Below are positions 3,015 to 63,536 of a stretch of 64,000 nt of DNA, in pieces. The stretch is from NCBI GenBank assembly GCA_009786285.1, contig WQTK01000339.1, positions 8,061 to 72,060 on the forward strand. Direction: 5' to 3'. Source of the stretch: Candidatus Fibrimonadales bacterium (GTDB lineage Bacteria; Fibrobacterota; Fibrobacteria; Fibrobacterales; Fibrobacteraceae). How positions within the stretch are numbered: the stretch's first letter is position 1; each line of letters begins with the position of its first letter. The notes beneath the pieces were generated by a model. The model made no database searches. It was not told where the DNA came from and saw only the letters and a program-made list of their open reading frames with translations. The position numbers and the translations under genes are program-made.

Positions 3015-3105
3015 ATCCTTTCTATCGGCAAAAAATGAATAAAAATGAAAAATAACGAATGAAATTAAAAATCCCCTCTTCTTTTACATTTTTATTTGTA
3101 TATTT

Positions 3106-49005: not shown

Positions 49006-49186
49006 TTTAGAAAATTTAAAAACACAGGAGATGTGTTTGCTCGCAGTGAAAAGAGGTTATTGAGAAGTTGATATATTTGAAGAAGAGTTGCATTTGGTCA
49101 TATATAAAATACACAAACCTTTTGTCCATGATGAGAAAAATCAGGATAGAATGGGAATATGCAGTGGATTGATATTTAGCAAAATA

Positions 49187-49207
49187 GCGACAATGGCTGG
49201 CGTTGTG
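49187..49207 (+). promoter_or_regulatory. operator-like motif, copy A: GCGACAATGGCTGGCGTTGTG, 6 nt upstream of TATATT (49214-49219)
   Basis: Identical to copy B and 19/21 to copy C. It has the quasi-palindrome CGACA-N5-TGGCG. Confidence 0.6.
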
Positions 49208-49250
49208 GCTTTGTATATTCCTCTTTAACATCAACAAGTGAGGTGAAAAG

Positions 49251-49343
49251 ATGGCTAAAGTAGTGAAAATTGAAGATGGCTCTATCACAGTTATGAACGA
49301 ACTGCTTGGTGAGTCGGCTTATAGCATAAAAAATATTTTCTAA
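49251..49343 (+). CDS. possible 30-aa small ORF (MAKVVKIEDGSITVMNELLGESAYSIKNIF)
   Basis: It is preceded by the same leader and GAGGTGA Shine-Dalgarno as the gene at 52795. There is no homology evidence. Confidence 0.3.
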   Translation: MAKVVKIEDGSITVMNELLGESAYSIKNIF

Positions 49344-49369: not shown

Positions 49370-50254
49370 ATGGAACAAACCCAAAAAGAGAATAAAGGCG
49401 AAATAGTGCTGTATCAAGCTGAAGATATGGTAAAATTGGATGTATTGCTTGAAAATGAAACTGTTTGGTTAACACAGGCGCAAATGGGACAATTGTTTGA
49501 AAAAAGCAGAAATACAATAACCGAGCATATACAAAATGTTTTCAAGGAAGGCGAATTACAAGAAGAAATGGTATGTCGGGATTTCCGACATACCACTCAA
49601 CACGGAGCAATAGAAGGCAAAACGCAAGTAGCAACAACAAAATATTACAATTTAGATGTTATTATTTCAGTAGGTTATCGAGTTAAGTCAAAAAAAGGCA
49701 CTCAGTTTAGGATTTGGGCTACCCAAGTGTTAAAGAATTACCTGCTTAAAGGATATGCCATTCGTCAACAAATAGAAAGCATAAAAAAGATATCCAATAA
49801 TCACGAGAGTCGTTTAATTGAAGTCGAAAAGAAAATTGATGTTTTCATAAAAACATCCGCTATGCCCTTAGAAGGAATTTTCTATGATGGGCAAATTTTT
49901 GATGCTTATACGTTTGTCTGCAATTTGGTAAAATCAGCGAAAAAGAGTATTATTCTCATTGATAATTGGGTAGATGAAAGCGTTTTGACTTTACTATCCA
50001 AAAGAAAAGACAAAGTATCGACTGAAATCTACACGCCAAAAATATCACAACAATTTCAATTAGATATTACAAAACATAATTCACAATATCCGCCAATTAA
50101 TGTGAAGATTTACCAAAAGGCGCATGATAGATTTCTGCTGATTGATGAGAATACTTATCACATAGGGGCATCAATTAAAGATTTGGGGAAAAAGTTGTTT
50201 GCATTTTCAAAGATGCAGATAAAAGCTAGTGACTTGCTTGAATCACTCCACTAG
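49370..50254 (+). CDS. RhuM-family (virulence-associated / ORF6N-type DNA-binding) protein
   Basis: IVLYQAEDM..LDVLLENETVWLTQAQMGQLF...YNLDVIISVGYRVKSKKGTQFRIWAT, and C-terminal HDRFLLIDENTYHIGASIKDLGKK. Confidence 0.7.
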   Translation: MEQTQKENKGEIVLYQAEDMVKLDVLLENETVWLTQAQMGQLFEKSRNTITEHIQNVFKEGELQEEMVCRDFRHTTQHGAIEGKTQVATTKYYNLDVIISVGYRVKSKKGTQFRIWATQVLKNYLLKGYAIRQQIESIKKISNNHESRLIEVEKKIDVFIKTSAMPLEGIFYDGQIFDAYTFVCNLVKSAKKSIILIDNWVDESVLTLLSKRKDKVSTEIYTPKISQQFQLDITKHNSQYPPINVKIYQKAHDRFLLIDENTYHIGASIKDLGKKLFAFSKMQIKASDLLESLH

Positions 50255-50370
50255 CTACCGCCCCTAAAATTATACAATAATCAAATAACCGTTAAATAAG
50301 AATTAAGTGCCTAAAAACAGCCTAAGCAAGCCATTACCGTTACCAAAAATAGGATTTTCTTGTGAAAATA

Positions 50371-50391
50371 GCGACAATGGCTGGCGTTGTG
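50371..50391 (+). promoter_or_regulatory. operator-like motif, copy B: GCGACAATGGCTGGCGTTGTG, 6 nt upstream of TATATT (50398-50403); the ATG lies 7 nt after the box
   Basis: The 27-nt stretch AAAATAGCGACAATGGCTGGCGTTGTG is identical to copy A. Confidence 0.6.
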
Positions 50392-50410
50392 AAATTTTAT
50401 ATTAATAGAT

Positions 50411-52711
50411 ATGTCTGGTAAATGGGATAATCCGAGTGTTCCTAACAGCGGTTGGGAATGTGTTGACGTTCAAGATTTGGGCGAGCCGATTATGACTTGC
50501 CAAATGTGTGAACGGGAAATAATTCGCTATGCGCATTATATGCAGCATCCGGCTTATAGATATGGATTGACAGTTGGCTGTATATGCGCTGGAAAAATGG
50601 AAGGCGATATGCAAAGCGCTAAAGAACGCGACGCATTTATGAAAAGCCGGATGAACAAAAGAAAAAACTGGCTTGAAAGAAAATGGAAAATATCCAAAAA
50701 CGGAAACCAATATGTAAAATCAGATGGTTTTCTTGTTGTTATGAAACAGAAAGACGGACTATGGAGTGCTTTTGTGAAAAGCGAAAGCGGAGATTTTGAA
50801 AAATGGAGCTCACGAAAAAATGTAAATGAAAACGAAATGAAACTGGCCGCCTTCGACTGCTTGACAAAAGTTTTAGCCGAAAAACGAAAGCCGTTGCCGC
50901 CGCCACAGCCATTACCATCACCGCCATTACCGTCACCGCCAGTATTGCAAATGCAAGCGCCGCCGTCACAGCCACAGCCAAAAATAAAGGAAGCTAAAAA
51001 CGATTCGGTTAATTTCACAAGCGAACAGAATAATATTTTTGAATTTATAAAAAGCGGAACGGGGCATGGAATAATAGATGCTGTTGCAGGGGCCGGAAAA
51101 ACCACAACAATAATGGAATGCGCAAAATATGTTGAAGATAAAACCAATGTTCTTTTCTGTGCGTTTAATAAGAGCATACAAAGCGAAATAGCAAACAAAT
51201 TCAGCAAACGGGGGCTAAATCAGGTAACTGTGAAAACCATTCATGCATTGGGTTTTCAAATATTAAAAGACAATAACAGCAGCAGCAAAAAATTCGTTGC
51301 GCAAGATTCAAAATACTGGACTATTCTGAACAAAGATGTAGAAATGCACAGGGAAATTCAAGCTTATATGGAAGAACTTTTGCGCATAAACGACTACGAA
51401 CTAAATGAGATTGAGAGCTACAAGCAATTTGCCGTTAGAGACATAATCCATAAATTCAAAGACCGATTGCTTGATATGAACCAAAAAATCAGGGCAACTT
51501 TAACTCCGTGCGATTTGGAAAAATTTAAGAATCTGGTTGAGCATTTTAATTTCTTTACCGAAGAAGAAATCAAGAAAAAAAAATTTGACAGAGAAATTGA
51601 GATTTATTTTGAGTGTGGCAAAATTTTGCTTTATGCAGGGAATGCTTTGGCAAAAGAGGCTTTGGTTATAGATTACACCGATATGCTTTATTTGCCTTTT
51701 ATTTGGAATTTGAGGGCATCAAGAACATATTCATTTTTGTTTATAGACGAATGCCAGAATTTATCAAAGTCTCAGCTTGCAGTGGTTCTTAAATACGGTC
51801 AAAGAGAGGGCAGGATTTTAGCCGTTGGAGATCCGTATCAGAGCATTTACGGTTTTGCCGGAGCAGACATAGAATCTTTTGACAGAATTAAAAACACCAT
51901 AAGGGCGAATCCTCTTCCTCTAACAACCTGTTTCAGGTGCCCGCCGAATGTTGTATCGCTTGCGGCCAGCATTAGGCGTGATATTTCTGCGAGCAAGCAG
52001 GAGCCGGGGGTAATTGAGGAGATTGCCTTTAAGCAGGTTATAAAGATGGCGAAGATAAATGATTTGATAATTTCTAGGTACAGGGAGCCTATTTTATTTT
52101 TGGTTTTTGAGTTTATAAATAAGAACATACAAGTGCAAATTCACAAGGATGAGGTTAATGACATTATAGATGAGTTGAAGAATTTATTTAAGCAGGAGGA
52201 GCGGGCTGCGATTATTACGGAAATTTCCGGTGGCTTTGAGACCATAAAGGATACCGTTTTCAACAGGTGGCTTTTTATTATTGAACGAGAGGCGAAAAGG
52301 CTGGAAAATTCCAGCGAGAGGCCGGTTTACATTAAGGCGAAAACGGAGTATTTGAATAACAGGCTTGAATTTATGCATAAAAAATATTTGCAGTGGAAAA
52401 ATTCTTGCCAAACGGTAAATGATATGTTGGTAAAAATAAAGGATTATATTTCTGCAACGGATAATTGCATTAAGCTTTCTACGATTCACAGGGCAAAAGG
52501 TTTGGAAGCGAGGCGTGTTTTTATTTTGAATTTCAATGATTTGCCGCATTTTAAACCTAATCAGAAGCCGTGGGAAAGGATTCAGGAGCAAAATTTGAAA
52601 TATGTAGCCATAACTCGGGCGTTGGAAGAGCTTTATTTGGTGAAGAGCGAGAAAATTGATGATATTAAGAAGGAAGCAAGTTTGTTTGATGAGTTTTTGG
52701 TGGATATATAG
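50411..52711 (+). CDS. SF1 UvrD/Rep-like helicase with an N-terminal Cys-rich domain and a Pro-rich linker
   Basis: Walker A AGAGKTTT (about 51086-51109), FIDECQNLS, VGDPYQSIYGFAGA, TCFRCP, STIHRAKGLEA and VAITRA. The N-terminus is W-C...CxxC...GCIC, and the linker is PLPPPQPLPSPPLPSPP. Confidence 0.85.
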   Translation: MSGKWDNPSVPNSGWECVDVQDLGEPIMTCQMCEREIIRYAHYMQHPAYRYGLTVGCICAGKMEGDMQSAKERDAFMKSRMNKRKNWLERKWKISKNGNQYVKSDGFLVVMKQKDGLWSAFVKSESGDFEKWSSRKNVNENEMKLAAFDCLTKVLAEKRKPLPPPQPLPSPPLPSPPVLQMQAPPSQPQPKIKEAKNDSVNFTSEQNNIFEFIKSGTGHGIIDAVAGAGKTTTIMECAKYVEDKTNVLFCAFNKSIQSEIANKFSKRGLNQVTVKTIHALGFQILKDNNSSSKKFVAQDSKYWTILNKDVEMHREIQAYMEELLRINDYELNEIESYKQFAVRDIIHKFKDRLLDMNQKIRATLTPCDLEKFKNLVEHFNFFTEEEIKKKKFDREIEIYFECGKILLYAGNALAKEALVIDYTDMLYLPFIWNLRASRTYSFLFIDECQNLSKSQLAVVLKYGQREGRILAVGDPYQSIYGFAGADIESFDRIKNTIRANPLPLTTCFRCPPNVVSLAASIRRDISASKQEPGVIEEIAFKQVIKMAKINDLIISRYREPILFLVFEFINKNIQVQIHKDEVNDIIDELKNLFKQEERAAIITEISGGFETIKDTVFNRWLFIIEREAKRLENSSERPVYIKAKTEYLNNRLEFMHKKYLQWKNSCQTVNDMLVKIKDYISATDNCIKLSTIHRAKGLEARRVFILNFNDLPHFKPNQKPWERIQEQNLKYVAITRALEELYLVKSEKIDDIKKEASLFDEFLVDI

Positions 52712-52731
52712 ATTTTTTTGGAAAAGAAATT

Positions 52732-52752
52732 GCGACAATGACTGGCGTTGTA
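52732..52752 (+). promoter_or_regulatory. operator-like motif, copy C: GCGACAATGACTGGCGTTGTA, 6 nt upstream of TATATT (52759-52764)
   Basis: 19/21 to copies A and B. The downstream 36-nt leader is nearly identical to that of copy A. Confidence 0.6.
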
Positions 52753-52794
52753 GATTTCTATATTCCTTTTTAACATCAACAAGTGAGGTGAAAA

Positions 52795-53232
52795 ATGTCA
52801 GAAATGAGATGTCAGTTTTGTGGCAAGGAACTGCAAGAGTATGAACTTAGCGGAGGTTCGTATTGTCAAAGCGGACCAGATAATAAGCATCAACCCGCCA
52901 AAGGATCAGGATTAGAAATGAGATGTTGTTTTTGTGGCAAGGAGTTACAAGAATATGAACTTAGCGGAGGTTCGTATTGCCAAAGTGGACCAAATAACAA
53001 GCATCTACTGGTTTTAGTAAATGAAATGAGATGTTGTTTTTGTGGCAAGGAGTTACAAGAGTATGAGCTTAGTGGGGGTTCATATTGCCCAAGTGGGTCT
53101 AACAACAAACATAAGCTAGCTTCAGAGGCTGAAATGAAATGCTGTTTTTGTGGTAAAGAACTGCAGGAGTATGAACTTAGCGGAGGTTCGTATTGCAATG
53201 ATGGGCCGGGGAACAAGCATAGGCTGGCTTGA
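52795..53232 (+). CDS. protein made of four tandem C3H zinc-knuckle-like repeats
   Basis: EMRCCFCGKELQEYELSGGSYCxSGPxNKH occurs four times (CxxC-x14-C-x7-H, counted). Confidence 0.7.
   Translation: MSEMRCQFCGKELQEYELSGGSYCQSGPDNKHQPAKGSGLEMRCCFCGKELQEYELSGGSYCQSGPNNKHLLVLVNEMRCCFCGKELQEYELSGGSYCPSGSNNKHKLASEAEMKCCFCGKELQEYELSGGSYCNDGPGNKHRLA
52801..53229. repeat. in-frame tandem repeat, 4 copies, period 114/108/108 bp
   Basis: The GAAATGAGATG units start at 52801, 52915, 53023 and 53131. Confidence 0.9.
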
Positions 53233-53243
53233 TGAGGTGAAAA

Positions 53244-53819
53244 ATGGCTAAAAAAGCTAAACCTGTAGCAAAGAAAACTCCTGTTAAAATTGCGTCGGCA
53301 AATCCAGCAGCGACTAAAGCTCAACCTGCAACAAGAGAACAATACGAAACATGGAAGAAAGAAAAAGATAAAAAAGTGAATGCCATTTTAGATTCCGCTT
53401 ATCCAAAATTATTATCTCCCGATGTAACTCAGGAAATGCAGGAAATGCTGAATGTTTCCAGTTCTGTTATTGGAAGTTTATCAGCAAAAACACAAGAAAT
53501 CATAGAAGTGTTGGAAAGTTCCTTCTCTATTGTTGGAGGTTTATCGGTAAAGCTAGTTGAAGATTTTTTGAATGGGAAAGATATAAATACAAAGCAATGT
53601 CGCAAGATTTTGAAAATACTTGATGTTTTTGAAGGTTCTAGTAATTTTGATTATTTTGACGAATATGCAGACAAAGGAGTCATAGGAATTAGATGCCATA
53701 GCATAGGTTATCTAATCAGAATTTACATTGTGAATATGGCTATTCGCAAATTAAAACAGGAAAATCCGAAATTAGGTGAGTTGCTTCAAATTTTGGATGA
53801 GTTGGATATAGAGAGATGA
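53244..53819 (+). CDS. hypothetical protein with a Lys/Ala/Pro-rich (histone-H1-like) N-terminal tail
   Basis: MAKKAKPVAKKTPVKIASANPAATKAQPA is followed by a helical domain. It starts 11 nt after the upstream stop and has a GAGGTGA Shine-Dalgarno. Confidence 0.5.
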   Translation: MAKKAKPVAKKTPVKIASANPAATKAQPATREQYETWKKEKDKKVNAILDSAYPKLLSPDVTQEMQEMLNVSSSVIGSLSAKTQEIIEVLESSFSIVGGLSVKLVEDFLNGKDINTKQCRKILKILDVFEGSSNFDYFDEYADKGVIGIRCHSIGYLIRIYIVNMAIRKLKQENPKLGELLQILDELDIER

Positions 53820-53958: not shown

Positions 53959-56898
53959 ATGTTTTTAAATTCTAAAAAATTCTATGAAGATCTTTGCGAA
54001 AATAATATTCTTGATTACGGCCGTAAGGAAAAACATCTTGAGCATTTTGGAAATCTTTATGCCGATAATACACACTTTATCTATGAACTATTGCAAAATG
54101 CAGAGGATGCAAAAGCGAAGTCTATTCTATTTCAATTATTTGATGACCGTTTAGAGATTTTACATAATGGACAAAAATTCTCCGAGGAGAATGTTAAAGC
54201 AATTACACAAATTGCAGAAAGTGCAGAAAGTGAATATAAAAAAATTGGAAAATTTGGACTTGGTTTTAAATCAGTATATGCAATAACTGATATCCCACAA
54301 ATATATTCTGGAGATTTTCATTTTAATATAGAAAAATACATTCGTCCATCAGAAATACCCAACAGGAAAATTGATGATAAATGGACAACTTTATTTGTCT
54401 TGCCTTTCAAAATAGATAAAAAACAGGAAATTTATGAAAAAATATCAAAAAGACTACAGAATACAAACGTACGCATTTTATTATTTTTAACTTATATTGA
54501 AGAAATGAAATTTAGTATAAAAAACATATGTGATGGCAAGTATTTGAGAAAAAACGAAAATAAAAATGGGTTAAATCAAATTGTTGTTACAAGCCAAGAT
54601 AAATCAGAAAATTTATTTGTATTTGATAAAGAGATTGATAACAAAAAAGTAGAAATAGCATTCTTATATGATGAGAAGGAAAATATAATAAATAAAACAA
54701 TAGATACAGATTTAGTCGTATATTTCCCAACCGCAAAAAAAACTAACCTTGGCTTTCTACTTCACGGAAACTTTAACACAACTCCTGCTCGCGATAATAT
54801 TCTGGAAGATGACAAACATAACAACGCTCTTGTAAAGATGGCTGCGGAATTATTGGTTGAAGCGATGCAGAAAATTAAATCCGCTAATTTGTGTAATATA
54901 TCATTTTTAGAATCCCTCCCCATAATAGCCTCTGATTTTCCAGAGAGTAATATCTTTTATCCATTGTTTAAAATAACAGCAAATACCCTTAAGCATCAAA
55001 ATTATTTGCCTATGTCAATAGGAGGATTTATCTCTGCTGAAAAAGCAATTATCGCAGCTACATCTGACTTAATTGATTTGTATGAACCTGACGGGAAGCA
55101 TTGGTTGTCAAAAGAAATAACCGAAAAATATTTACATTTATATAATTATTTACGACATTCCCTTGGCATTGAATATGTAACACCAGATAAATTTGCAAAT
55201 AGAATTGATGAAAATTTTCTTCACAAACAATCAGATGATTGGTTCATAAAATTTTATATTTTTTTGAACAATGGGCGAAATGCTCTATGGCGCGAAACTC
55301 CTAATCCTGAAGGTGTTCTACGCTCAAAACCTATCCTTCGCCTTGAAGATAATACTTTAAAAACACCAAAAGAAGAAGTTTTTCTTCCGATAGAAAATTC
55401 TGTATCCAATTGTCCAATGATTAAATCTTCAATTGCAACCAATGAAGAAGCTTTAGCTTTTTTAAAAGTATTAGGATTGGACAAGCCTGAACCGATAGAT
55501 GATATTATACAGAGAATTTTTCCAAAATATAAAACTACTCCATACGTATCAGAAGCAGAATACAAAAATGATTTAAACTCAATTCTAACTATATTAAAAG
55601 ACGAAACACAAGATGAAAAAAATAAATTAAAAGGAAGACTACAAAACCTAATGGTTATAAAATGTTCCGATGAAAAATTTAGAAAACCTTCTGATGTTTA
55701 CTGCAATAATGAGAATATGAAAAAATGGTTTAAGTACTCGAGTAACATACACTTTGCAAACAATATATTAAATAATTGTGATTGGAAATTATTCAATGTA
55801 GCCGATTTACCTCGTAAAATACTTCTAAATACTCTTCCTAATGGAGTCCAAAAAGCGTATTTTCCTAGATACAACGCCAAAGAATATAAAATTGAAAATT
55901 ATGACTTGGATGGCTTGAACGATTTCATTATAAACATAAATCCCGATGATTCTCAAATTATCGCGAACGTTATCGTTTCTAAATTTTATGTCGACAGACG
56001 TCTTTTTGATGGAGAGCAGGATTATTCTTATAATGGCCCTAAAAAGTCTTATTTCAAAAATAATATCCATCAAATATTAAATAATTCGAAATGGATTCTT
56101 GGAAATGATGGTAAATTGTATGAACCAAAAGGCATCATAGCAGAAGATATCGCTAAAAATATTGCCGAAAACATAATTAATATTAATTTGCCCTTTGATT
56201 TTAAAAAAAACGAAGAAAAAGAATTAGAAGAAAATTTAGCAACCTTAGGAAAAAAAATTGTTAACTTAGCGGAATATGAAGAATTTCAAAAATGGAAAGA
56301 ATTGAACGATGAAGAAAAGTCGCAAGATTTATATGAAGGTATTTTAGAACCTCAATATTCAATTGATGAAACAACGCCAATCGAAAGGTCAATAGCTCTA
56401 ATGCAAGAAGATAAAGGAATAGGAGGTTCTAGAAAAATCTCTTTTCTAGAACAAACAGTGAATATTCTACCAGATGTGAAAATTAAAACTCCTATTCTAG
56501 ACACTAAAAAAGCTAAAGAAATCGGACAACGTGGCGAAGATATAGTAAAAAAATTTTTGATAGACAATGAAGGATTTAATGAAAATGACATAAACATTCT
56601 TAATAATGAAGAGAATGTCGGAACGGGTCGGGATTTTGAAGTTAAAAAAAATGGCGAAATTATCAAAATTATAGAAGTAAAATCTACAGTCGATCTAGGA
56701 CCAGTTCATACATTTCCTATTTCAGGAAAACAATGGGAAACTGGACGCAGAGAACAAGATAAATTCTGGATTTATGCAGTATTTAACGTATGGAGCAAAG
56801 AGCCTATAGTTGTACGGATTCAAAATCCAATTAAGCAATGGAAATACGGTGATATAGAAGCGCAGCTTGTAAATTTAATTAGTAGGATAAAATCCTAA
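53959..56898 (+). CDS. sacsin-type GHKL ATPase fused to a C-terminal DUF3883-like (restriction-endonuclease-fold) domain
   Basis: YELLQNAEDA (54085-54111) and IGKFGLGFKSVY form the Bergerat-fold N-terminus. The C-terminus is GQRGEDIV...GRDFEV...IEVKST...FWIYAV. Confidence 0.7.
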   Translation: MFLNSKKFYEDLCENNILDYGRKEKHLEHFGNLYADNTHFIYELLQNAEDAKAKSILFQLFDDRLEILHNGQKFSEENVKAITQIAESAESEYKKIGKFGLGFKSVYAITDIPQIYSGDFHFNIEKYIRPSEIPNRKIDDKWTTLFVLPFKIDKKQEIYEKISKRLQNTNVRILLFLTYIEEMKFSIKNICDGKYLRKNENKNGLNQIVVTSQDKSENLFVFDKEIDNKKVEIAFLYDEKENIINKTIDTDLVVYFPTAKKTNLGFLLHGNFNTTPARDNILEDDKHNNALVKMAAELLVEAMQKIKSANLCNISFLESLPIIASDFPESNIFYPLFKITANTLKHQNYLPMSIGGFISAEKAIIAATSDLIDLYEPDGKHWLSKEITEKYLHLYNYLRHSLGIEYVTPDKFANRIDENFLHKQSDDWFIKFYIFLNNGRNALWRETPNPEGVLRSKPILRLEDNTLKTPKEEVFLPIENSVSNCPMIKSSIATNEEALAFLKVLGLDKPEPIDDIIQRIFPKYKTTPYVSEAEYKNDLNSILTILKDETQDEKNKLKGRLQNLMVIKCSDEKFRKPSDVYCNNENMKKWFKYSSNIHFANNILNNCDWKLFNVADLPRKILLNTLPNGVQKAYFPRYNAKEYKIENYDLDGLNDFIININPDDSQIIANVIVSKFYVDRRLFDGEQDYSYNGPKKSYFKNNIHQILNNSKWILGNDGKLYEPKGIIAEDIAKNIAENIININLPFDFKKNEEKELEENLATLGKKIVNLAEYEEFQKWKELNDEEKSQDLYEGILEPQYSIDETTPIERSIALMQEDKGIGGSRKISFLEQTVNILPDVKIKTPILDTKKAKEIGQRGEDIVKKFLIDNEGFNENDINILNNEENVGTGRDFEVKKNGEIIKIIEVKSTVDLGPVHTFPISGKQWETGRREQDKFWIYAVFNVWSKEPIVVRIQNPIKQWKYGDIEAQLVNLISRIKS

Positions 56899-56936: not shown

Positions 56937-56957
56937 ACGACACCCACTGTCGCAACG
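56937..56957 (+). promoter_or_regulatory. operator-like motif, copy D (diverged): ACGACACCCACTGTCGCAACG, containing the perfect inverted repeat CGACA-N5-TGTCG; 6 nt upstream of TACATT (56964-56969)
   Basis: It has the same AAAAT prefix, the same spacing to the -10-like box and the same 7-nt distance from box to ATG as copy B. Confidence 0.5.
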
Positions 56958-56976
56958 CATTTGTACATTATAAATC

Positions 56977-57531
56977 ATGAACCAATGCACCAAATGCAAC
57001 CGCTCGCTAAAACCCGCCGCAAAGTTCTGCTCCGCTTGCGGCACGGCTGTACAACCCACCCCACAATGCGCAAAATGCGGAACTTATTGCGAAAAAGACG
57101 CTAAATTCTGCTCAGAATGCGGAAGCGTTGTTGGAGTAGATGCAGCTTTGTTTGGAGAATTTGTTGATGACAGAGACGGCACACGATACAGAACCGTGAA
57201 AATAGATGGCAAAATCTGGATGGCAGAAAACTTGAACTACGATGGAAAAAGCGTCTATGACTGGGCTAACGCCCGGAACGCTTGCCCAGACGGATGGCAC
57301 CTACCCAGCTTTAGAGAATGGTACGAACTCCTGAACTCTAACTGCGAAAACAGCGAATTTTACAGGATTTTCGGCATTGGCAAACACGACCACTGGTGGT
57401 GCGCAGAAGAAGATAGCAAAGAAAGAAGCCTCTCGTGGCACATATCGCATAATAATGGCTTTTTTTACAACAATTCACACAAATTATGCCTATTTGAAGT
57501 TCGGTGCGTGAAAGGAGGTGCCCATGATTGA
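56977..57531 (+). CDS. double zinc-ribbon plus truncated FISUMP-domain protein, with no signal peptide or TM segment
   Basis: CTKCN..FCSACG and CAKCG..FCSECG, followed by FVDDRDGTRYRTVKIDGKIWMAENLNY...CPDGWHLPSFREW...VRC. Confidence 0.7.
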   Translation: MNQCTKCNRSLKPAAKFCSACGTAVQPTPQCAKCGTYCEKDAKFCSECGSVVGVDAALFGEFVDDRDGTRYRTVKIDGKIWMAENLNYDGKSVYDWANARNACPDGWHLPSFREWYELLNSNCENSEFYRIFGIGKHDHWWCAEEDSKERSLSWHISHNNGFFYNNSHKLCLFEVRCVKGGAHD

Positions 57532-59701
57532 CTTTTCAGTTTTTTTCGCAAAACATGACGATTTCATTTTACGATATAGCGGCGGTTTTGAACTGGATTA
57601 TTATATATGCAGATATTTGCTGACAATACAAAATAATAAAAAACATTTTGCAATGGATGAGCATTTTTATGGAAGATTTTTATATTTTCTCGGAACAAAC
57701 TACTTAGAAGTTGCAATTAATTATGCAAAACGACGTTATAACAAAATCCCCCCAGAAGCTACAGATGTAAAAAAAGAAAGTAAATTATTCTTAAATTGGA
57801 AATCATTATACGAACTTCTGGATTTTCAAGAATGGAATTCAATGCTGACATTTTTGCTAAGGTTAGTCGCTCGCAAAAAACAAAAATTGGAAATTCTTGA
57901 AAAACGATTGGATTTAATATGCAAAACACTTAATCTATGCAAAATAAATAAAGAACTTCTATGCTTTCTATATTTATGGGATTACAATAACTCCATAATT
58001 TATTTGCTAGATGAGGTTAGCAGAGCCATAAATGCAAACTCAGGCAAAATAAGTTACGCCGCAATTGGCCTGCTCGCAAATTATTCCGAAGAAACCGTTT
58101 TGGATGCGCTTTCCAAAGAACGTGGACTGATAAATTTAAATATTTTAAACAGTTCCGAAAAAGGAGGTTTTGGCATTCCAATTGAAATAAGAAAATATTT
58201 AAAAGGACTTGGCTCCGATAATTTCATGGGTATATATGCTGCAAACGACAGCAAACCTGCTTTGCCCATTGAAAAATTTGATTGCCAAAAAGAAGCAAAA
58301 TTTATAATAGATTTGATATCCATGCACAAAAACGAAAAGCCTCTGCATATTTTGTTCTACGGAACGGAAGGCACGGGAAAAACAGAACTCGCAAGGGCAA
58401 TAGCCGCAAATACAAATTGCTCACTCTTGGATATCGGGCGAGGAATTAAAAAACAAGTGCTTGACACGGATGAAGATATTACAAATGCATTGACAAAATT
58501 TCGCATAAGAGCGCTGACAATTACAGAAACTGCACTGAAAAACAAAAGCAATGTTATTCTGCTCATTGATGAAGCAGATAATTTGCTAAACTTCTTTGAA
58601 AAGGGCACTCTGAATCAAATAATGGAAGATATGCGAGTTCCTGTAATCTGGATTAGCAATAATCTGTTTTTTGTTAAAAAATCAAGTTTGCGCCGTTTTA
58701 ATTTCAGCATAAAATTCAAAGACAACAGCGAAAGCATGAGACTCAAAATTTGGGAAAGCGTGGTGGAAAAACATCAGGCTGGCGAGCTTTTCACAACCGA
58801 ACGCATAAAAACTCTGGCTAACAAATACAATGCAAACCCAGGCGGAATAGAACTTGCGGTTTCCAGCGAAATGCAGTTCGCAAAAAACGGCAAACAGGAA
58901 CAAGTAGCAGAACTTGTGCTGAAACAACATCTGGAACTCTTATGCACGCAAAGCAATTATAAAAACACGCAAAGCAAAGCTCCAAAATATGACGAAAACG
59001 TTTTGAATGTACATGGAATGGAAAATGCCCTGCATGCCGCAAAATGCTACGCCGAGTGCCTGAAAAACAAAGAAACGGAAAGCAATTGCACCATGCTCTT
59101 GTATGGCCCTCCAGGAACAGGCAAAACGGAATTCGCAAAGCATTTGGCAAGAATAAGCGAGCTGCCTTTCAAGGAGATAAGTTACAGCAAAATATCTTCT
59201 TGCTATGTTGGCCAAACGGAAAAGCAATTGGCAGCGGCATTTGAAGAAGCATCCAAAGAAGGCTCGCTGCTCTTTATAGACGAGGCAGACAGCCTGATTT
59301 CCGACCGAAGAAACGCAAATCAATCATGGGAAACCACGCAGGTAAATGAATTTCTGGTTCAATTGGAAAACAGCAAATGCCTTGTTGTTTGCTCAACGAA
59401 TTTCCAAGGCAAATTGGACGCTGCAAGCAATCGCAGATTTCATTTTCATTTGAGATTTGATTATCTTAAAAAAGATGGGATTTTTAAAATGGCGCAAAAC
59501 TTTTTCCCGGAATTTGAAGACGAAGCCTGGAACGAGCTTTGCAGCTTGGAATGCCTGACTCCCGGCGATTTTTACGCTGTATATAAGCGCTTGCAGTGGT
59601 TGCCGAAAAATGAACTCTCTGCTTCGCAGGTTACAAAGGAGCTAAGCGAAGTTGCCCTTGCAAAGGAGCCTTATGGAAACAGGCGCATTGGATTTTTCTA
59701 A
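57518..59701 (+). CDS. tandem AAA+ ATPase with an N-terminal domain of about 270 aa of unknown function
   Basis: AAA-1: GTEGTGKT (58361-58384) and LLIDEAD. AAA-2: GPPGTGKT (59105-59128), LLFIDEADSL and SNRRF (arginine-finger region). Confidence 0.8.
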   Translation: MPMIDFSVFFAKHDDFILRYSGGFELDYYICRYLLTIQNNKKHFAMDEHFYGRFLYFLGTNYLEVAINYAKRRYNKIPPEATDVKKESKLFLNWKSLYELLDFQEWNSMLTFLLRLVARKKQKLEILEKRLDLICKTLNLCKINKELLCFLYLWDYNNSIIYLLDEVSRAINANSGKISYAAIGLLANYSEETVLDALSKERGLINLNILNSSEKGGFGIPIEIRKYLKGLGSDNFMGIYAANDSKPALPIEKFDCQKEAKFIIDLISMHKNEKPLHILFYGTEGTGKTELARAIAANTNCSLLDIGRGIKKQVLDTDEDITNALTKFRIRALTITETALKNKSNVILLIDEADNLLNFFEKGTLNQIMEDMRVPVIWISNNLFFVKKSSLRRFNFSIKFKDNSESMRLKIWESVVEKHQAGELFTTERIKTLANKYNANPGGIELAVSSEMQFAKNGKQEQVAELVLKQHLELLCTQSNYKNTQSKAPKYDENVLNVHGMENALHAAKCYAECLKNKETESNCTMLLYGPPGTGKTEFAKHLARISELPFKEISYSKISSCYVGQTEKQLAAAFEEASKEGSLLFIDEADSLISDRRNANQSWETTQVNEFLVQLENSKCLVVCSTNFQGKLDAASNRRFHFHLRFDYLKKDGIFKMAQNFFPEFEDEAWNELCSLECLTPGDFYAVYKRLQWLPKNELSASQVTKELSEVALAKEPYGNRRIGFF

Positions 59702-59711
59702 ATTCTCCCTT

Positions 59712-60764
59712 ATGCGCTCAACGGACTCTTTAAAATGGCAGAGGATGCTCACTGCATACCAGTTTTTCATTCAGAAAAAAGGCAAGCAACAGACTGTTAA
59801 GGATGTTGAATTTTTCCTGAAAAGCACGGGCATAGAAGTTTGCACCCGAGATGTTCAGCGAGATTTGATGGAATTGAAAAACAACGGCGTTTTGGAAAAT
59901 GTCGGGAAGGGCAAGAATCTGAGATACAAAATACCCGCTATGCACGCCATAGACTTTTATAGCGATTTATACGAAAATGATATTTTTTCTTTTTTGCTCG
60001 TATCCAGAATCCTGTTTTGGATGTTTGGCGAAAACATAAGCATTGAATCTTTGGAAAAAGCTATTTCAGAGAGCTCTCGAAAACAAATTGGGCTTCATGG
60101 AAAAGATTTGTATGAGCATCTGTCTGCAAAAATGAGCGGCTTGCTTGAATATGTCGGTGAGCAGAGTGCAAAGAGCGGAAAACCTAAATTTCTGCCAATC
60201 GTTATAAAAGGATTGCTGGAGCTGAGAAAATTGGAAGTTGAATATATAGGCGCCGCAAATGAATTTCCTAAGAAAATAACTTTGGAACCTTGGGCTTTGA
60301 TTGTGTATAAATCAGCTTTGTATATTTTGAGCCCGGACAAATCAATAAAATCCAAATGGAAAACTTTCAAACTGTCTCGCTTTCAAAACGTTAAAATTTT
60401 GAGCGAAGTTTTTGAAAAGGAATCCGGCATTCTAAAGAAAGAGCTTGACCGAATGAAATTCAGCGGAACAATTTGGGACGCAAAAAACAGCCTTGAAGAA
60501 AAATCTGTTTTGATAAAACTTAAGTTTAGCTGGTACGACCGCTTGCTTTTGCAGGAAAATTTATTTTTGAACAATATGAAAATAATCGAGCATAAAAACG
60601 CAGATAAAAACAAGGCTTGGATAGAAGTTCACATGAAAAGCCCCATAAACAAAGACTTGCTGGCTTGGATTCGTTCTTGGGGTTATGACGCAAAAGTTAT
60701 TGCGCCCCAAGAATTGAAAGATGAAATGGTCAATTATGGAAAATGGCTATTACTTCACAATTAG
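59712..60764 (+). CDS. WYL-domain transcriptional regulator (HTH, WYL and WCX architecture)
   Basis: N-terminal HTH (TVKDVEFFLKSTGIEVCTRDVQRDLMELK). A WYL-like core (LEVEYIG...ITLEPWALIVYKSALYIL...WKTFKLSRFQNVKIL). C-terminal LLAWIRSWGYDAKVIAPQELK. Confidence 0.75.
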   Translation: MRSTDSLKWQRMLTAYQFFIQKKGKQQTVKDVEFFLKSTGIEVCTRDVQRDLMELKNNGVLENVGKGKNLRYKIPAMHAIDFYSDLYENDIFSFLLVSRILFWMFGENISIESLEKAISESSRKQIGLHGKDLYEHLSAKMSGLLEYVGEQSAKSGKPKFLPIVIKGLLELRKLEVEYIGAANEFPKKITLEPWALIVYKSALYILSPDKSIKSKWKTFKLSRFQNVKILSEVFEKESGILKKELDRMKFSGTIWDAKNSLEEKSVLIKLKFSWYDRLLLQENLFLNNMKIIEHKNADKNKAWIEVHMKSPINKDLLAWIRSWGYDAKVIAPQELKDEMVNYGKWLLLHN

Positions 60765-60789: not shown

Positions 60790-61176
60790 TTATTTCCAAA
60801 AGCCTTTACAGTCTTCGTCTTTTACCGGGCGGTTGTTTATGTAGCATTGCCATGCCCATTTGTCATCTGCTTGCTTGAACTTTGACCAGCCGTGATACTC
60901 GCATTTATTGTTCAGTTTCATCACGGCTACCAGCTTTCTCTCAAACCATTCCCTTTCTTCGCCTCGGTCGTACATTGGTTTTCTTCTGATATAATTTGTC
61001 CATACCCGTTCTTTGCCATAACAAAAATTATTCACATAGTTTTCCCGGCAAATTAAAAATCCGGTTTCCAATTCCATGCATTTTTCATAGCTTTTCCCTT
61101 TTGCATACCATTCACCGGCAAAAACGCTTGCGGCAAGGATTGTTGCCAAAACAACGGCAGTTCTAATAATTGTCAA
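60790..61176 (-). CDS. small secreted Trp/Cys-rich protein, hypothetical
   Basis: The TTG start overlaps the TGA stop of the upstream AAA+ gene (TTGA). It has a signal-like TIIRTAVVLATILAASVFA and 6 Cys in the mature part. Confidence 0.4.
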   Translation of the reverse strand: MTIIRTAVVLATILAASVFAGEWYAKGKSYEKCMELETGFLICRENYVNNFCYGKERVWTNYIRRKPMYDRGEEREWFERKLVAVMKLNNKCEYHGWSKFKQADDKWAWQCYINNRPVKDEDCKGFWK

Positions 61177-63536
61177 AACCCAATCTTCCTGCTGCCGTAA
61201 GGCTCTTTCGCAGCCACCATTCCTTCCAGCTCCTGAATAACCCGTTTTGCGGTAAGCTCGTCTTTGGGCAGCCACTGCAACCTCTTGTACACGGCATAAA
61301 AATCACCCGGAGCCACCGCATCCATCTCGGCTATCTTTTCCCAGTTTTCATCAAAAAAATCAGGGAAAAAGTTTTCTGCCATTTTCAAAATTCCTTCCCT
61401 TTTCAAAAAACCGAAATGCAAATGAAAATGAAATCTGCGATTGCTGGCAATGTCCAAATGCCCCTGAAAATTTGTTGAGCACACAACCATGCACTTCGCG
61501 CTCTCCAGTTGCACCAAAAACTCGTTTGTCTGCGTAACTTCCCAGCTTCTAACTGCGCCCTTGCGATCTGCTATCAAACTGTCGGCCTCGTCAATAAACA
61601 GCAATTCCCCGGATTCGTTAGCCTGCTTAAAAGCTGCCGCAAGCTGTTTCTCCGTTTCGCCAACCCACATGGATGAAATTTGCCCATAGCTTATTTCCCG
61701 GAAAGAAAGCCCGCATTCCCTGGCCAGGAATTTTGCGAATTCCGTTTTGCCGGTTCCCGGAGGGCCGTAGAGAAGCATGGTCATGTTGCCTTCGGAATGC
61801 TTGCTTTTAAGCTGCTCCGAATAACACTTCGCAGAGTGCAAAACTTCGTTTAAATTGGGAATGTTCAGCACGGAGACATCGTATTTCGGAGCGCGGCTGA
61901 CTGTATGCTTGTTTGTTTTCAGACCCATAAGCTCAACGTGGTTTTCCAAAATTTCTTCGCCTATTTCCTTGTGCATCCCGCTTTCCATAAGAGCCACCTC
62001 GTTCTGCACCGCAAGTTCTATTCCGCCTGTGGAAATTTCGTATTTCTCCGCAAGTTTTTTTCTGCGCTCAGGCGAAAATATCTGCTCTGCCTTGTGCTTT
62101 TCAACAACGCTGTCCCAGAGTTTTTTGCGAATATTCTGGTTGCCCAAATCAAAGCTTACGCTGTATTGAAATCTGCGCATTGTTGAGCGCTCAATATTGT
62201 TTATGTTGTTTGTTATCCAAATCACAGGCAGTTTCAAATTTTCCAGAAACCTGTTTAAAATGCCCTTTTCAAAGCCGTTCAAAATCAAGTCAGCTTCGTC
62301 TGCCACCAGCAAAACATCTTTTTCCCTGAGGCAAATTTCAGAAATTTTCAAAGCTCTCACTCTATAAGATATAACGCCTTCCTTGTGCGTTTGCTTGCCG
62401 AAAATTCCCTGGTTGTTTTTGAATTCCGCGCCTATTTCATAGAGCGTTTTGCCGGTTTCCGCAGCTATGGAACGTGCAAGCTCGCTTTTTCCGGTGCCTT
62501 CCATTCCATAGAATAAAAAATTGAGCGAGCGATTGTTTTTATAGCTTTTAATCAAGTCGCAAATCAAAGAGGCTTCTTTCACGCAGTCAAAACGCTCAAC
62601 AGGCAATGCTTTTTTGCTGTCTATTCTTGCGTAATTTTCCAAAAAATTTCCTGAGCCAATTCCGCTTAAAAAATTCTTGACATCCGGCGGCAAATCTCCG
62701 TCTTCGTCAAGAATGCCCAGTTCTATCAGGCCCCTGGGTTTTGAGAGGGAATTCATAATAGAGTCTCTGGAGTGCCCGGTTAAAATGGAAATCACACGGT
62801 CAAGAAAATTGCTTGAGCTGTGCCTGCCCTTGAATGTTTCCATAACGCAGTCGCTAAGGTCATCCATCAGAGAGTCTTTGGATGTGGCAAAAGTCAAAGT
62901 CAAAACATCTTGGGAAACTCTGTCCAAATCCAAAGTTTCGCTTAAAATGCCGAGTCTTTCCTCAAATACATCGCTAAAATACAGAAGCTTGGCCTTGATT
63001 TGCATATCAAGAGCGTACTTGAGCATCTCCAAAAACAGAAAATTCACATCAAACGGATTTTTTACTTCGCTTAGCCAAAATTTGGAATTTAACAATTCGT
63101 TTATCATCAGCCACGACGCAAGAAAATCCGGCGCATGAAGCGCTTTGCCGAGTTTTGTCTCAAACTGGTTCCTGCTCTTCGATTGTTCCGAGTTGTTTTT
63201 CAAGTGATTTCCCGTTATCTCAATGACTCGGTTCAAGCCGTCTGTGCCGAGAAAATCTATGATTTCAACATAATGCTCGTCTCTCAAGCTAAAATCGTAA
63301 TGAGTTTTGTGCATAGAGAGCAGGTACTCAAAATATTTCGCGCATTTGCTTTCCCGCAAAGCCTTTGTGGGGCTGGAATAGCGGGTATAGCTACGCTCGT
63401 CGCTATCTTCCAAAAACCTAGCGAAATTCATTTTCCGAACTTTTTTTCTAATCACACCAGCCATTTCCTCATTTCTCTTCTTTATTATAGTTAAAAACAG
63501 CTTTAAATTTAGAAAATTTCCACTTCCAAACTCCAT
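61173..63536 (-). CDS. tandem AAA+ ATPase, paralog of 57518..59701 (alternative starts at 63464 and 63431)
   Basis: It has the same architecture and long collinear identity, for example MLLYGPPGTGKTEFAK...ELLFIDEADSLI...VVCSTNFQG...SNRRFHFHL...APGDFYAVYKRLQWLPK. Confidence 0.8.
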   Translation of the reverse strand: MEFGSGNFLNLKLFLTIIKKRNEEMAGVIRKKVRKMNFARFLEDSDERSYTRYSSPTKALRESKCAKYFEYLLSMHKTHYDFSLRDEHYVEIIDFLGTDGLNRVIEITGNHLKNNSEQSKSRNQFETKLGKALHAPDFLASWLMINELLNSKFWLSEVKNPFDVNFLFLEMLKYALDMQIKAKLLYFSDVFEERLGILSETLDLDRVSQDVLTLTFATSKDSLMDDLSDCVMETFKGRHSSSNFLDRVISILTGHSRDSIMNSLSKPRGLIELGILDEDGDLPPDVKNFLSGIGSGNFLENYARIDSKKALPVERFDCVKEASLICDLIKSYKNNRSLNFLFYGMEGTGKSELARSIAAETGKTLYEIGAEFKNNQGIFGKQTHKEGVISYRVRALKISEICLREKDVLLVADEADLILNGFEKGILNRFLENLKLPVIWITNNINNIERSTMRRFQYSVSFDLGNQNIRKKLWDSVVEKHKAEQIFSPERRKKLAEKYEISTGGIELAVQNEVALMESGMHKEIGEEILENHVELMGLKTNKHTVSRAPKYDVSVLNIPNLNEVLHSAKCYSEQLKSKHSEGNMTMLLYGPPGTGKTEFAKFLARECGLSFREISYGQISSMWVGETEKQLAAAFKQANESGELLFIDEADSLIADRKGAVRSWEVTQTNEFLVQLESAKCMVVCSTNFQGHLDIASNRRFHFHLHFGFLKREGILKMAENFFPDFFDENWEKIAEMDAVAPGDFYAVYKRLQWLPKDELTAKRVIQELEGMVAAKEPYGSRKIGF

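Follow-up and report, generated by a model that had tools for sequence, protein, structure and literature searches.

Within the 64,000 nt stretch of the Candidatus Fibrimonadales contig WQTK01000339.1 analysed here (the window, whose numbering is used throughout), open reading frame (ORF) reading and repeat analysis identified a gene with an ATG start at 52795..53232 on the + strand, which encodes a protein of 145 amino acids (aa) and is referred to here as the knuckle gene. The protein has the layout MSE-[unit]x4, with the units starting at aa 3, 41, 77 and 113, and the unit starts at nt 52801, 52915, 53023 and 53131 give periods of 114/108/108 nt, which bears out the original prediction, made from the letters of the window, that these 145 aa consist of four repeats with periods of 38/36/36 aa. 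Unit 1 (52801..52914, aa 3-40) reads EMRCQFCGKELQEYELSGGSYCQSGPDNKH with the linker QPAKGSGL, and is followed on the same strand by unit 2 (52915..53022, aa 41-76), unit 3 (53023..53130, aa 77-112) and unit 4 (53131..53229, aa 113-145). All share the core EM[RK]C[CQ]FCGKELQEYELSGGSYC..G..NKH, i.e. Cx2C-x14-C-x7-H, with 24/30 core positions identical in the four units and Cys making up 15/145 residues of the protein, and Tandem Repeats Finder recovered the array with a period of 108, 3.6-4.0 copies and a score of 422-423. A ribosome binding site (RBS) TGAGGTG was read from the sequence at 52784..52790 (+ strand), with its GAGG 7-10 nt 5' of the ATG, and is kept in three loci encoding relatives (L005, L008 and L009). 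The exact protein has been annotated by gene callers on two ENA metagenome contigs, one being the window's own 75-kb contig and the second 99.98% identical to it.

By sequence comparison, the knuckle protein is the longest member seen of a widespread family without a curated model. A profile of the four units, run against 1.84e9 representative proteins, returned two 71-aa two-unit proteins (E 4e-21 and 9e-16), a 35-aa single-unit protein (E 6e-10) and a divergent 67-aa two-unit protein (E 7e-4), with a 1393-aa repeat protein (P0007) rejected as a false positive, and a two-unit profile run against 5.8e9 clusters added eleven further two-unit proteins of 59-79 aa. Searching with the repeat unit thus found no well-characterised family, but it did find uncurated relatives, at E 4e-21 to 7e-4. 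The family signature is Cx2CG, a variable loop and then Cx2-SPxKKH, in 1-4 head-to-tail units with short linkers, mostly 2 or 3: four units are present in the window protein, one in P0006 and L008, two in P0004, P0005 and P0008-P0020, and three in many members from GTDB genomes. A hand-made DNA pattern for the family (SPxKKH-x8-C[VI][YFW]CG) matched 66 loci in GTDB representative genomes, against ~2-3 expected from its information content. These were found in Treponema (including T. bryantii, T. porcinum and Brucepastera isolates), Bacteroidota (Tenacibaculum, Polaribacter), Kiritimatiellia, Phycisphaerae, Leptospirales, Clostridia, Desulfovibrio and other Deltaproteobacteria, and Gammaproteobacteria (Dyella), with further members in Fibrobacter-like metagenomes and a few viral contigs. 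Two architectures were common, one of two units (61-79 aa) and one of three units (81-86 aa) of the form KC[KR]YCGSxSYGSGCxxSPxKKHEH, the latter being His-rich, and hhalign joined the window-type units to the genome units with a probability of 97.3% (E 1.7e-11). The loop between Cx2CG and the third Cys has ~8-20 residues and differs in length and sequence by lineage. The family has a median isoelectric point (pI) of 9.0 and a net charge of +6, whereas the sub-branch of the window protein lies on the acidic to neutral side (pI 5.6-6.5). No matches came from genome and viral scans whose patterns were derived solely from the window protein, nor from a first word-indexed search of the clustered protein collection, which failed to return even the query; the latter result reflects the absence of the exact sequence from that collection rather than uniqueness of the protein. 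Although it has a clear signature, is under strong purifying selection and extends over six or more bacterial phyla, the family still lacks a Pfam, NCBIfam, PADLOC or PHROG model. Proteins of <100 aa are routinely missed or left unannotated, and our literature search found no paper describing a family of tandem Cx2CG...Cx2SPxKKH mini-fingers.

The unit cores were 74-88% identical in pairwise nucleotide comparisons, which agrees with the original description of the units as highly similar in DNA, but this likeness only follows from the constraint on the amino acid sequence. Per pair of units, 6-11 synonymous codon differences were found against 2-5 non-synonymous ones, and Nei-Gojobori estimates between the window units gave a proportion of synonymous differences (pS) of 0.47-0.91, a synonymous divergence (dS) of 0.7 to undefined, a non-synonymous divergence (dN) of 0.03-0.14 and a ratio (omega) of ~0.02-0.11. 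In the first 22 codons of units 2 and 3, 5/11 synonymous sites differ as opposed to 0/55 non-synonymous sites, and the same pattern was seen in the relatives P0004 and P0005, with two units each (dS ~0.9, dN ~0.06). Near-saturated synonymous sites together with low dN indicate that purifying selection keeps the four units alike, and judged by these rates the unit copies in the window are old, or at least without recent homogenisation, which speaks against the recent expansion or concerted evolution that had been proposed for this gene. Among 72 multi-unit proteins, median identity between units was 0.71 within one protein versus 0.48 between proteins. This higher identity within proteins, in combination with the saturated synonymous sites, suggests that each unit is needed and that the units of one protein share a single specificity, as would fit a multivalent binder of identical sites, whatever the nature of those sites.

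The substitution pattern also bears on the possibility that the array is not a gene at all, but a tandem DNA repeat in which one frame is open by chance. The blank first word-indexed search and the absence of the exact sequence from the clustered collection would be compatible with this, but the omega of ~0.02-0.11, the conserved strong RBS and the dozens of homologues that keep the frame, the ligands and the KH motif across phyla are not, and we consider this scarcely credible reading to be effectively refuted by the combination of substitution pattern and conservation. The ORF is, by these sequence measures, a genuine gene under selection. Comparison of copy number among relatives did reveal a change: the loci L005, with two units, and L008, with one, are orthologous and are set apart by exactly one 108-nt unit, with the upstream gene, promoter, RBS and downstream box (see below) all aligning, which shows that copy number changes between close relatives, although a recent expansion is not supported for the window gene itself. 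Units that are held alike by selection despite synonymous saturation, while their copy number changes between strains, offer a handle on target binding, and to our knowledge such behaviour of repeats is uncommon for bacteria.

The putative metal ligands were invariant throughout the alignments. Positions C4, C7, C22, K29 and H30 were invariant in 11 aligned family units, the same ligand columns (C, C, C, H) were invariant in both units of 17 aligned two-unit proteins, and C, C, C, S, P and H were invariant in 32 genome units. The residue before the ligand His was an invariant Lys or Arg in every family alignment, and the second Cys of the 'CC' in the window protein varied across the family. 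Three invariant Cys and one invariant His constitute evidence for a single-metal Cys3-His site in each unit, in agreement with the single-zinc site that had been considered plausible, and from this ligand conservation we infer metal binding itself; most likely, each unit of ~30 residues folds round one metal ion, probably Zn, and presents its lineage-specific loop at the surface. An AlphaFold2 model based on a 6-row alignment (predicted local distance difference test, pLDDT, 71), built without metal, showed each unit as a beta-hairpin knuckle with a short helix; a model from the single sequence was unusable (pLDDT 40). Foldseek searches of the predicted model against PDB and BFVD returned just generic zinc fingers (LIM, RING, PHD, TRASH and HNH) at E >= 0.17, so that we take the fold claim no further than 'small zinc finger'.

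The original prediction knew of no described family with this repeat, and that view held up in Pfam, NCBIfam, PADLOC, PHROG and PDB checks, none of which yielded a passing or significant match. In Pfam, the 145-aa protein scored below the cut-off for ProRS-C_1 (28.8 vs 31.5 bits), DUF6011 (24.9 vs 26.6), DUF7501 (24.3 vs 27) and zf-C4_ClpX (22.1 vs 27), and with NOD2_WH (24.1 vs 23.1 bits) no single stretch passes alone. NCBIfam scores were 13-23 bits against cut-offs of 40-148, and the aligned sub-threshold Pfam and NCBIfam matches span just the generic CxxCGK knuckle, of 8-25 residues. PADLOC models matched neither the knuckle protein nor the 191-aa product of the next gene, PHROG matches to the knuckle protein were weak, unnamed and not significant, a profile search of PDB sequences gave E >= 0.18 (best to the RpoP and L37a knuckles), and no Pfam or NCBIfam model matched the family relatives. 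The sole database similarities found were thus to generic zinc-ribbon and knuckle modules (RpoP/Rpo12, S27e/L24e/L37a, the ClpX N-terminal C4 domain, the ProRS C-terminal domain and DUF6011), which have in common with the family a CxxCG[KR] on a beta-hairpin, with another pair of ligands following after 14-20 residues. In contrast to those modules, the second half-site of the family is C-x2-SPxKKH (Cys...His) and not CxxC, and tandem units make up the whole protein.

A second likeness is to the TRASH/MYM-FCS treble clefs (zf-FCS, Arc_trans_TRASH, YHS), with which the units share a Cx2C, a loop and an aromatic-Cys motif. Relatives of the knuckle protein, and these only, gave sub-threshold matches to zf-FCS (16.2 vs 22.4 bits) and Arc_trans_TRASH (~14.5 vs 27 bits), at E 0.009-0.04, and the Foldseek match to the TRASH domain of ZMYM5 (2das) had an E value of 3.7. 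Membership was rejected on the spacing, which is Cx2C-x14-C-x7-H and not Cx2C-x19-22-[FY]CSx2-3C; the last ligand also differs, and the SPxKKH signature is missing from TRASH domains. A metagenome scan also matched six loci (L010-L015) that encode Acidobacteria-like proteins of ~300-900 aa that open with MRCLYCGKELALFKRLRGGEFCSDAHRQKY, an FCS/TRASH-like finger for which Pfam was blank. Their N-terminal domain (MRCLYCGKEL...GGEFCSDAHRQKY, MRCLYCGKEL...FCSDAHRQKY) looks FCS-like and has CGKEL and GG.[FY]C in common with the window units, which we take as similarity at the level of the knuckle only. Judged by all of these comparisons, the knuckle protein is a small zinc-finger type that fails membership of every curated family tried.

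A protein made solely of repeated Cys units could also be a multi-core precursor of a ribosomally synthesised and post-translationally modified peptide (RiPP), or a metallothionein-like metal store, and the His-rich composition of the three-unit relatives and a weak NCBIfam match to RaxX_RiPP (23.5 bits) point in that direction. That match is far below the 40-bit cut-off, however, there is no leader (the 35-aa single-unit forms begin at the unit), and no radical-SAM, cyclase or protease maturase recurred among 109 neighbour proteins, whilst the Cys content (15/145) and the absence of any metal-transport or Zur-type context in the loci seen argue against metal storage. Both functions are considered very unlikely.

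The knuckle gene lies between a helicase gene and a GHKL-nuclease gene, as had been stated, and the coordinates of both neighbours agree with this placement. Upstream, 50411..52711 (+ strand) encodes a UvrD/GajB-like helicase with a Cys-rich N-terminal extension, and downstream, 53959..56898 (+ strand) encodes a TmtA-like (Tiamat-type) protein with GHKL (SACS/HATPase_c_3) and NOV_C nuclease-like parts (PADLOC TmtA, E 1.8e-75). Between the latter and the knuckle gene, only 11 nt past the knuckle stop codon, is an orphan gene of 191 aa (53244..53819, + strand) with the same RBS, as the 14-mer TGAGGTGAAAAATG at the knuckle-gene RBS recurs at 53233-53246. A terminator scan found no + strand terminator between the two genes, which are probably co-transcribed. 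The 191-aa protein has a Lys/Ala/Pro-rich N-terminus, gave no family match in Pfam, PADLOC, PHROG or NCBIfam, and a search of 5.8 billion clusters, at the sensitivity that a word index allows, returned no homologue of it. The helicase extension (~180 aa, 50411-50950) contains a CxxC...CxC arrangement (MTCQMCEREI...GCICAGK); it had no Pfam or PHROG match, and its likeness to the knuckle protein in BLAST was non-significant (E 0.048).

The knuckle gene was originally described as sitting behind an operator-controlled promoter, and this is a reasonable description of what is found upstream. An operator-like box, GCGACAATGACTGGCGTTGT, which is an imperfect palindrome (GCGACA-N5-TGGCGT), is located at 52732..52751 (+ strand), directly 5' of a -10-like promoter motif, TTTCTATATT (52755..52764, + strand), which alignment of the upstream regions showed to be conserved. 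In the window, copies of the 20-nt box GCGACAATGRCTGGCGTTGT are found at 49187, 50371 and 52732, with 0 expected by chance. The second copy (49187..49206, + strand) is 5' of a 30-aa ORF and a RhuM/PDC-S05 gene, the third (50371..50390, + strand) is 5' of the helicase gene, and a fourth copy, the perfect palindrome CGACACCCACTGTCG (at about 56938..56953, + strand), is 5' of a zinc-ribbon/Fib_succ_major gene that heads a string of AAA and WYL genes. In the window, a looser CGACA-N4-6-YGKCG form occurs inside this island only. Each copy of the box is a few nt 5' of the sequence TTTSTATATT or a one-mismatch variant. This sequence was found 16 times in the window versus 0.83 expected (e.g. at 3095, 9795, 11016, 22811, 38562, 53924 and 57965), and is probably a general -10-type element of the organism. 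It resembles neither the sigma-70 consensus nor the TAnnTTTG motif of Bacteroidetes, and a generic sigma-70/terminator scan and an inverted-repeat finder missed both box and promoter in the region of 52732.

Box and promoter motif are also associated with the knuckle gene elsewhere. In L003, L008 and L021, the gene lies behind a CGACA-N5-TGTCG/TGGCG box that is followed by the promoter motif, and in L005 a variant box 5' of the gene was seen just by alignment, as the pattern match there (at 1870) is downstream of the gene; in all four loci, a box also begins the next transcription unit. The presence of the palindromic box before four consecutive transcription units in the window suggests a defence-island regulon, and the WYL regulator encoded at the end of the island is, by co-occurrence, a candidate binder of the box. 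Two side observations concern the same sequences. Firstly, a promoter/5' untranslated region/RBS module of ~75-100 nt (box, TTTSTATATT and AACATCAACAAGTGAGGTGAAAA) is duplicated at 49160-49262 and 52705-52806 with ~89% identity and is partly present before the helicase gene (50344-50420), and such duplicated modules could act as recombination substrates that shuffle the genes of the island. Secondly, the helicase gene and the zinc-ribbon/Fib_succ_major gene start only ~10 nt after the -10-like motif (in the regions 50396-50413 and 56961-56979, respectively), a distance at which their mRNAs may be leaderless or the annotated starts wrong.

In its position the knuckle gene resembles the genes for controller (C) proteins of restriction-modification systems, which are likewise small genes directly 5' of a nuclease gene and behind a palindromic operator. 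C proteins are helix-turn-helix (HTH) dimers that read their own C-box, whereas no HTH family in Pfam or NCBIfam matched the 145-aa protein and its predicted fold is a hairpin knuckle with a short helix; moreover, the box stays constant across varying knuckle loops, and it is found 5' of genes that lack a knuckle gene as well. The P2 Ogr and P4 Delta proteins are zinc-binding late-gene activators, single or tandem-duplicated, that bind RNA polymerase and act at promoters with dyad elements. Like the knuckle proteins they are small (putative) zinc proteins of mobile elements with one unit or a covalent tandem, but their ligands are Cx2C...Cx4C, and Ogr_Delta gave no Pfam match to knuckle proteins at an E limit of 0.1. 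The family thus shares neither fold nor motif with C proteins or Ogr/Delta, and the likeness is one of position and tandem duplication only. Haloarchaeal CPxCG micro-proteins are numerous proteins of <80 aa with one or two zinc-binding knuckle pairs, mostly without known function, and resemble the smaller family members in being <80 aa and essentially zinc knuckles. They differ in having CPxCG pairs instead of Cx2CG...Cx2SPxKKH and in occurring in other taxa, and we know of no tandem identical units or reported link to defence islands for them.

The genomic context of the relatives showed that the family is recurrently linked to GmrSD and to defence or mobile regions. The gene order is PDDEXK_4, a 71-aa knuckle gene, GmrSD and WYL-WCX in L003/L004, and a 76-aa knuckle gene, GmrSD, Mrr_cat and WYL-WCX in L021, and in L023-L025 a 76-aa gene is followed by GmrSD. 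In L005, PDDEXK_4 fragments precede a 71-aa gene, and L008 has a C-terminal fragment of the L005-type upstream gene (by inference also PDDEXK_4-type), a 35-aa gene and a PIN-like protein. In L009/L006, a 35-aa gene is followed after 12 nt by a weakly UDG-like protein of 253 aa and then by a 126-aa protein. An HTH_3 or CI-like repressor gene is divergent from the knuckle gene in L017-L020 and L026, and WYL-WCX closes the module in L003 and L021, as it stands at the end of the island in the window. Among the three-unit members, GmrSD_N outnumbered every other neighbour family, and it was present in the two-unit set too. Other neighbours were SNF2, AIPR, PARG, HTH_3, a D5-type primase and a PcfJ-like protein, and the direct neighbours in the GTDB loci were mixed and included housekeeping genes. 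In the window there is no gene with the DGQQR motif of GmrSD (DUF262), and the TmtA-like gene holds the place after the knuckle gene that GmrSD has in related loci; pairing of the family with a TmtA-like gene was seen at this one locus only.

GmrSD adjoins the knuckle gene directly in 7 loci of ~77. It is downstream on the same strand in L003, L021, L023, L040, L056 and L088 and upstream in L041, having been recognised by the DGQQR motif in L040, L041, L056 and L088, and further DGQQR frames were found within the stretches (up to 8 kb) retrieved for L031, L071, L074 and L087. A published survey reported 389 GmrSD homologues in 277 GmrSD-bearing genomes. From these figures, GmrSD would account for well under 0.1% of genes, and as an informal estimate <0.1 adjacent cases would be expected among ~140 neighbour genes. 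The gaps measured 63-282 nt where GmrSD is downstream and 25 nt in L041, and several of the GmrSD loci have promoter-like sequence in the gap. The sequences 5' of the knuckle-GmrSD pair in L040 (1-213), from a Leptospirales metagenome-assembled genome (MAG), and L088 (7838-8000), from a Flavobacteriales MAG, are nearly identical, which points to horizontal transfer of the module or a binning error, and the two loci may perhaps not be independent cases. In L003, ~58 nt 5' of the knuckle gene (2248-2305) are a 78% copy of the 5' end of a WYL gene (L003 4655-4700, window 59731-59787), probably the mark left by recombination or deletion between modules of the island.

In view of the mobile surroundings, the knuckle protein might also be a mobile-element or counter-defence factor that travels with prophages, satellites and integrative elements, is directed at the systems of hosts or competitors (e.g. 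for anti-restriction) and is no more than a passenger in defence islands. Five IMG/VR viral contigs carry family members, and in two of these members, L093 (1039-1692) and L095 (minus strand), on two contigs of which one measures 239 kb, two units are fused to an uncharacterised C-terminal phage-protein domain of ~150 aa, phrog_2086. A Treponema bryantii member follows a D5_N/DUF5906 primase gene, a Polaribacter member follows a PcfJ-like gene, and RhuM and similar genes are nearby in the window. Against this, tblastn with three members drew a blank in 50,697 GenBank phage records and 72,556 PLSDB plasmids, a search in which low-complexity filtering could have hidden the Gly/Ser-rich query with three units. 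Furthermore, the window gene carries the operator box of the island's defence genes, and the same-strand place 5' of GmrSD in several phyla suits a partner rather than an enemy. We regard a counter-defence role as clearly unlikely, though less so than the RiPP and metal store proposals.

Considering the units, their regulation and their neighbours together, we tentatively favour, with less than even confidence, a Zn-stabilised multivalent binder with a bias towards nucleic acid and regulation. The knuckle protein would be made with the other genes of the island from a promoter carrying the island's palindromic box, and every one of its identical units would engage a site of the same type. Nucleic acid would be the likelier target, with the protein serving as a small, controller-like regulator of adjacent nuclease-type defence genes, and an oligomeric protein partner would be the next most likely target. 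Support for this reading comes from the basic nature of the family (pI 9.0, charge +6), from the unrelated genes that accompany it as cargo, and from the position of the knuckle gene as the first small gene behind the box promoter in the window, L003, L005, L008 and L021, or divergent from a CI/HTH_3 gene. Several observations weigh against it. The box is conserved between loci with unrelated knuckle loops, which makes the knuckle protein an unlikely reader of the box, and the loci in question encode dedicated regulators (WYL, HTH_3) as well. The pI of 5.6-6.5 of the window sub-branch weakens a DNA-binding role for the window protein, and the three-unit forms fit no simple dyad operator. With the gaps as they are, several of them containing promoter-like sequence, the knuckle and GmrSD genes need not form one operon, and housekeeping neighbours are common enough that the defence linkage holds as a tendency only.

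The main rival is a protein adaptor or inhibitor, comparable to an antitoxin, in which the loop of each unit would dock one subunit of an adjacent oligomeric effector, namely the 191-aa or the TmtA-like protein in the window and GmrSD in other loci, and would bridge the effector or keep it inactive up to the moment of infection. The loops are lineage-specific and yet identical within a protein despite saturated synonymous sites, as would fit co-evolution with a partner, the acidic or neutral character of the window sub-branch is in keeping with protein binding, and GmrSD recurs as a neighbour; BrxU, a member of the GmrSD family, has been described as forming intertwined dimers. Very different downstream genes follow at only 10-22 nt, namely the 191-aa orphan in the window, the UDG-like gene in L009 and a DUF1232 gene in Treponema. 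On the other hand, partners as unrelated as GmrSD, the TmtA-like, UDG-like and PIN-like proteins and the membrane protein DUF1232 would be unusual for one small fold, the gaps to GmrSD are mostly >60 nt, and L005 and L008 carry the knuckle gene alone between two promoters. The loops and the close spacing to the 191-aa gene would be accounted for by an adaptor no less well than by the regulatory binder, and overall we consider it possible but rather doubtful.

Arrays of such mini-fingers may represent a dedicated and hitherto unrecognised partner class for type IV restriction enzymes of the GmrSD type and other defence nucleases, in which the lineage-specific loop, present 1-4 times, would set recognition or firing (e.g. 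by reading a modified-DNA or phage-derived ligand); in the window, the four-unit protein would serve the TmtA-like enzyme in this way, together with the 191-aa protein. We offer this as a speculative proposal that is more likely wrong than right by a wide measure. GmrSD is usually treated as a single-protein system, and knuckle genes 5' of it point to a possible accessory or regulatory layer, in the window perhaps for the Tiamat-like gene. If so, heterologous tests of such 'single-gene' systems without the small gene could mislead.

The remainder of the island contains further genes with a link to defence or regulation. Between the first box promoter and the RhuM/PDC-S05 gene (49370..50254, + strand) is the 30-aa ORF (MAKVVKIEDGSITVMNELLGESAYSIKNIF, 49251..49343, + strand), which has the same RBS as the knuckle gene and is called on the public contig too. 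Downstream of the TmtA-like gene, the zinc-ribbon/Fib_succ_major gene (+ strand) is followed by the AAA-WYL string, consisting of a double AAA+ ATPase (57518..59701, + strand) that is IetA-like in PADLOC and a WYL-WCX regulator (59652..60764, + strand), with no IetS-type protease detected in the island beside the IetA-like ATPase. A second large double-AAA+ ATPase is encoded on the opposite strand (61173..63536, - strand), and Rfam identified no RNA family in the island. The weakly UDG-like neighbours of the knuckle gene in two unrelated loci, L009 (10115-10876) and L021 (7153-7857), showed marginal mutual likeness (E 0.005), on which we base no claim. The window WYL protein is 67% identical to the one that closes the knuckle-GmrSD module in L003, and alignment with the latter suggests that translation starts at the ATG at 59712, probably the true start, and not at the TTG at 59652, which would remove the 50-nt overlap with the AAA+ gene.

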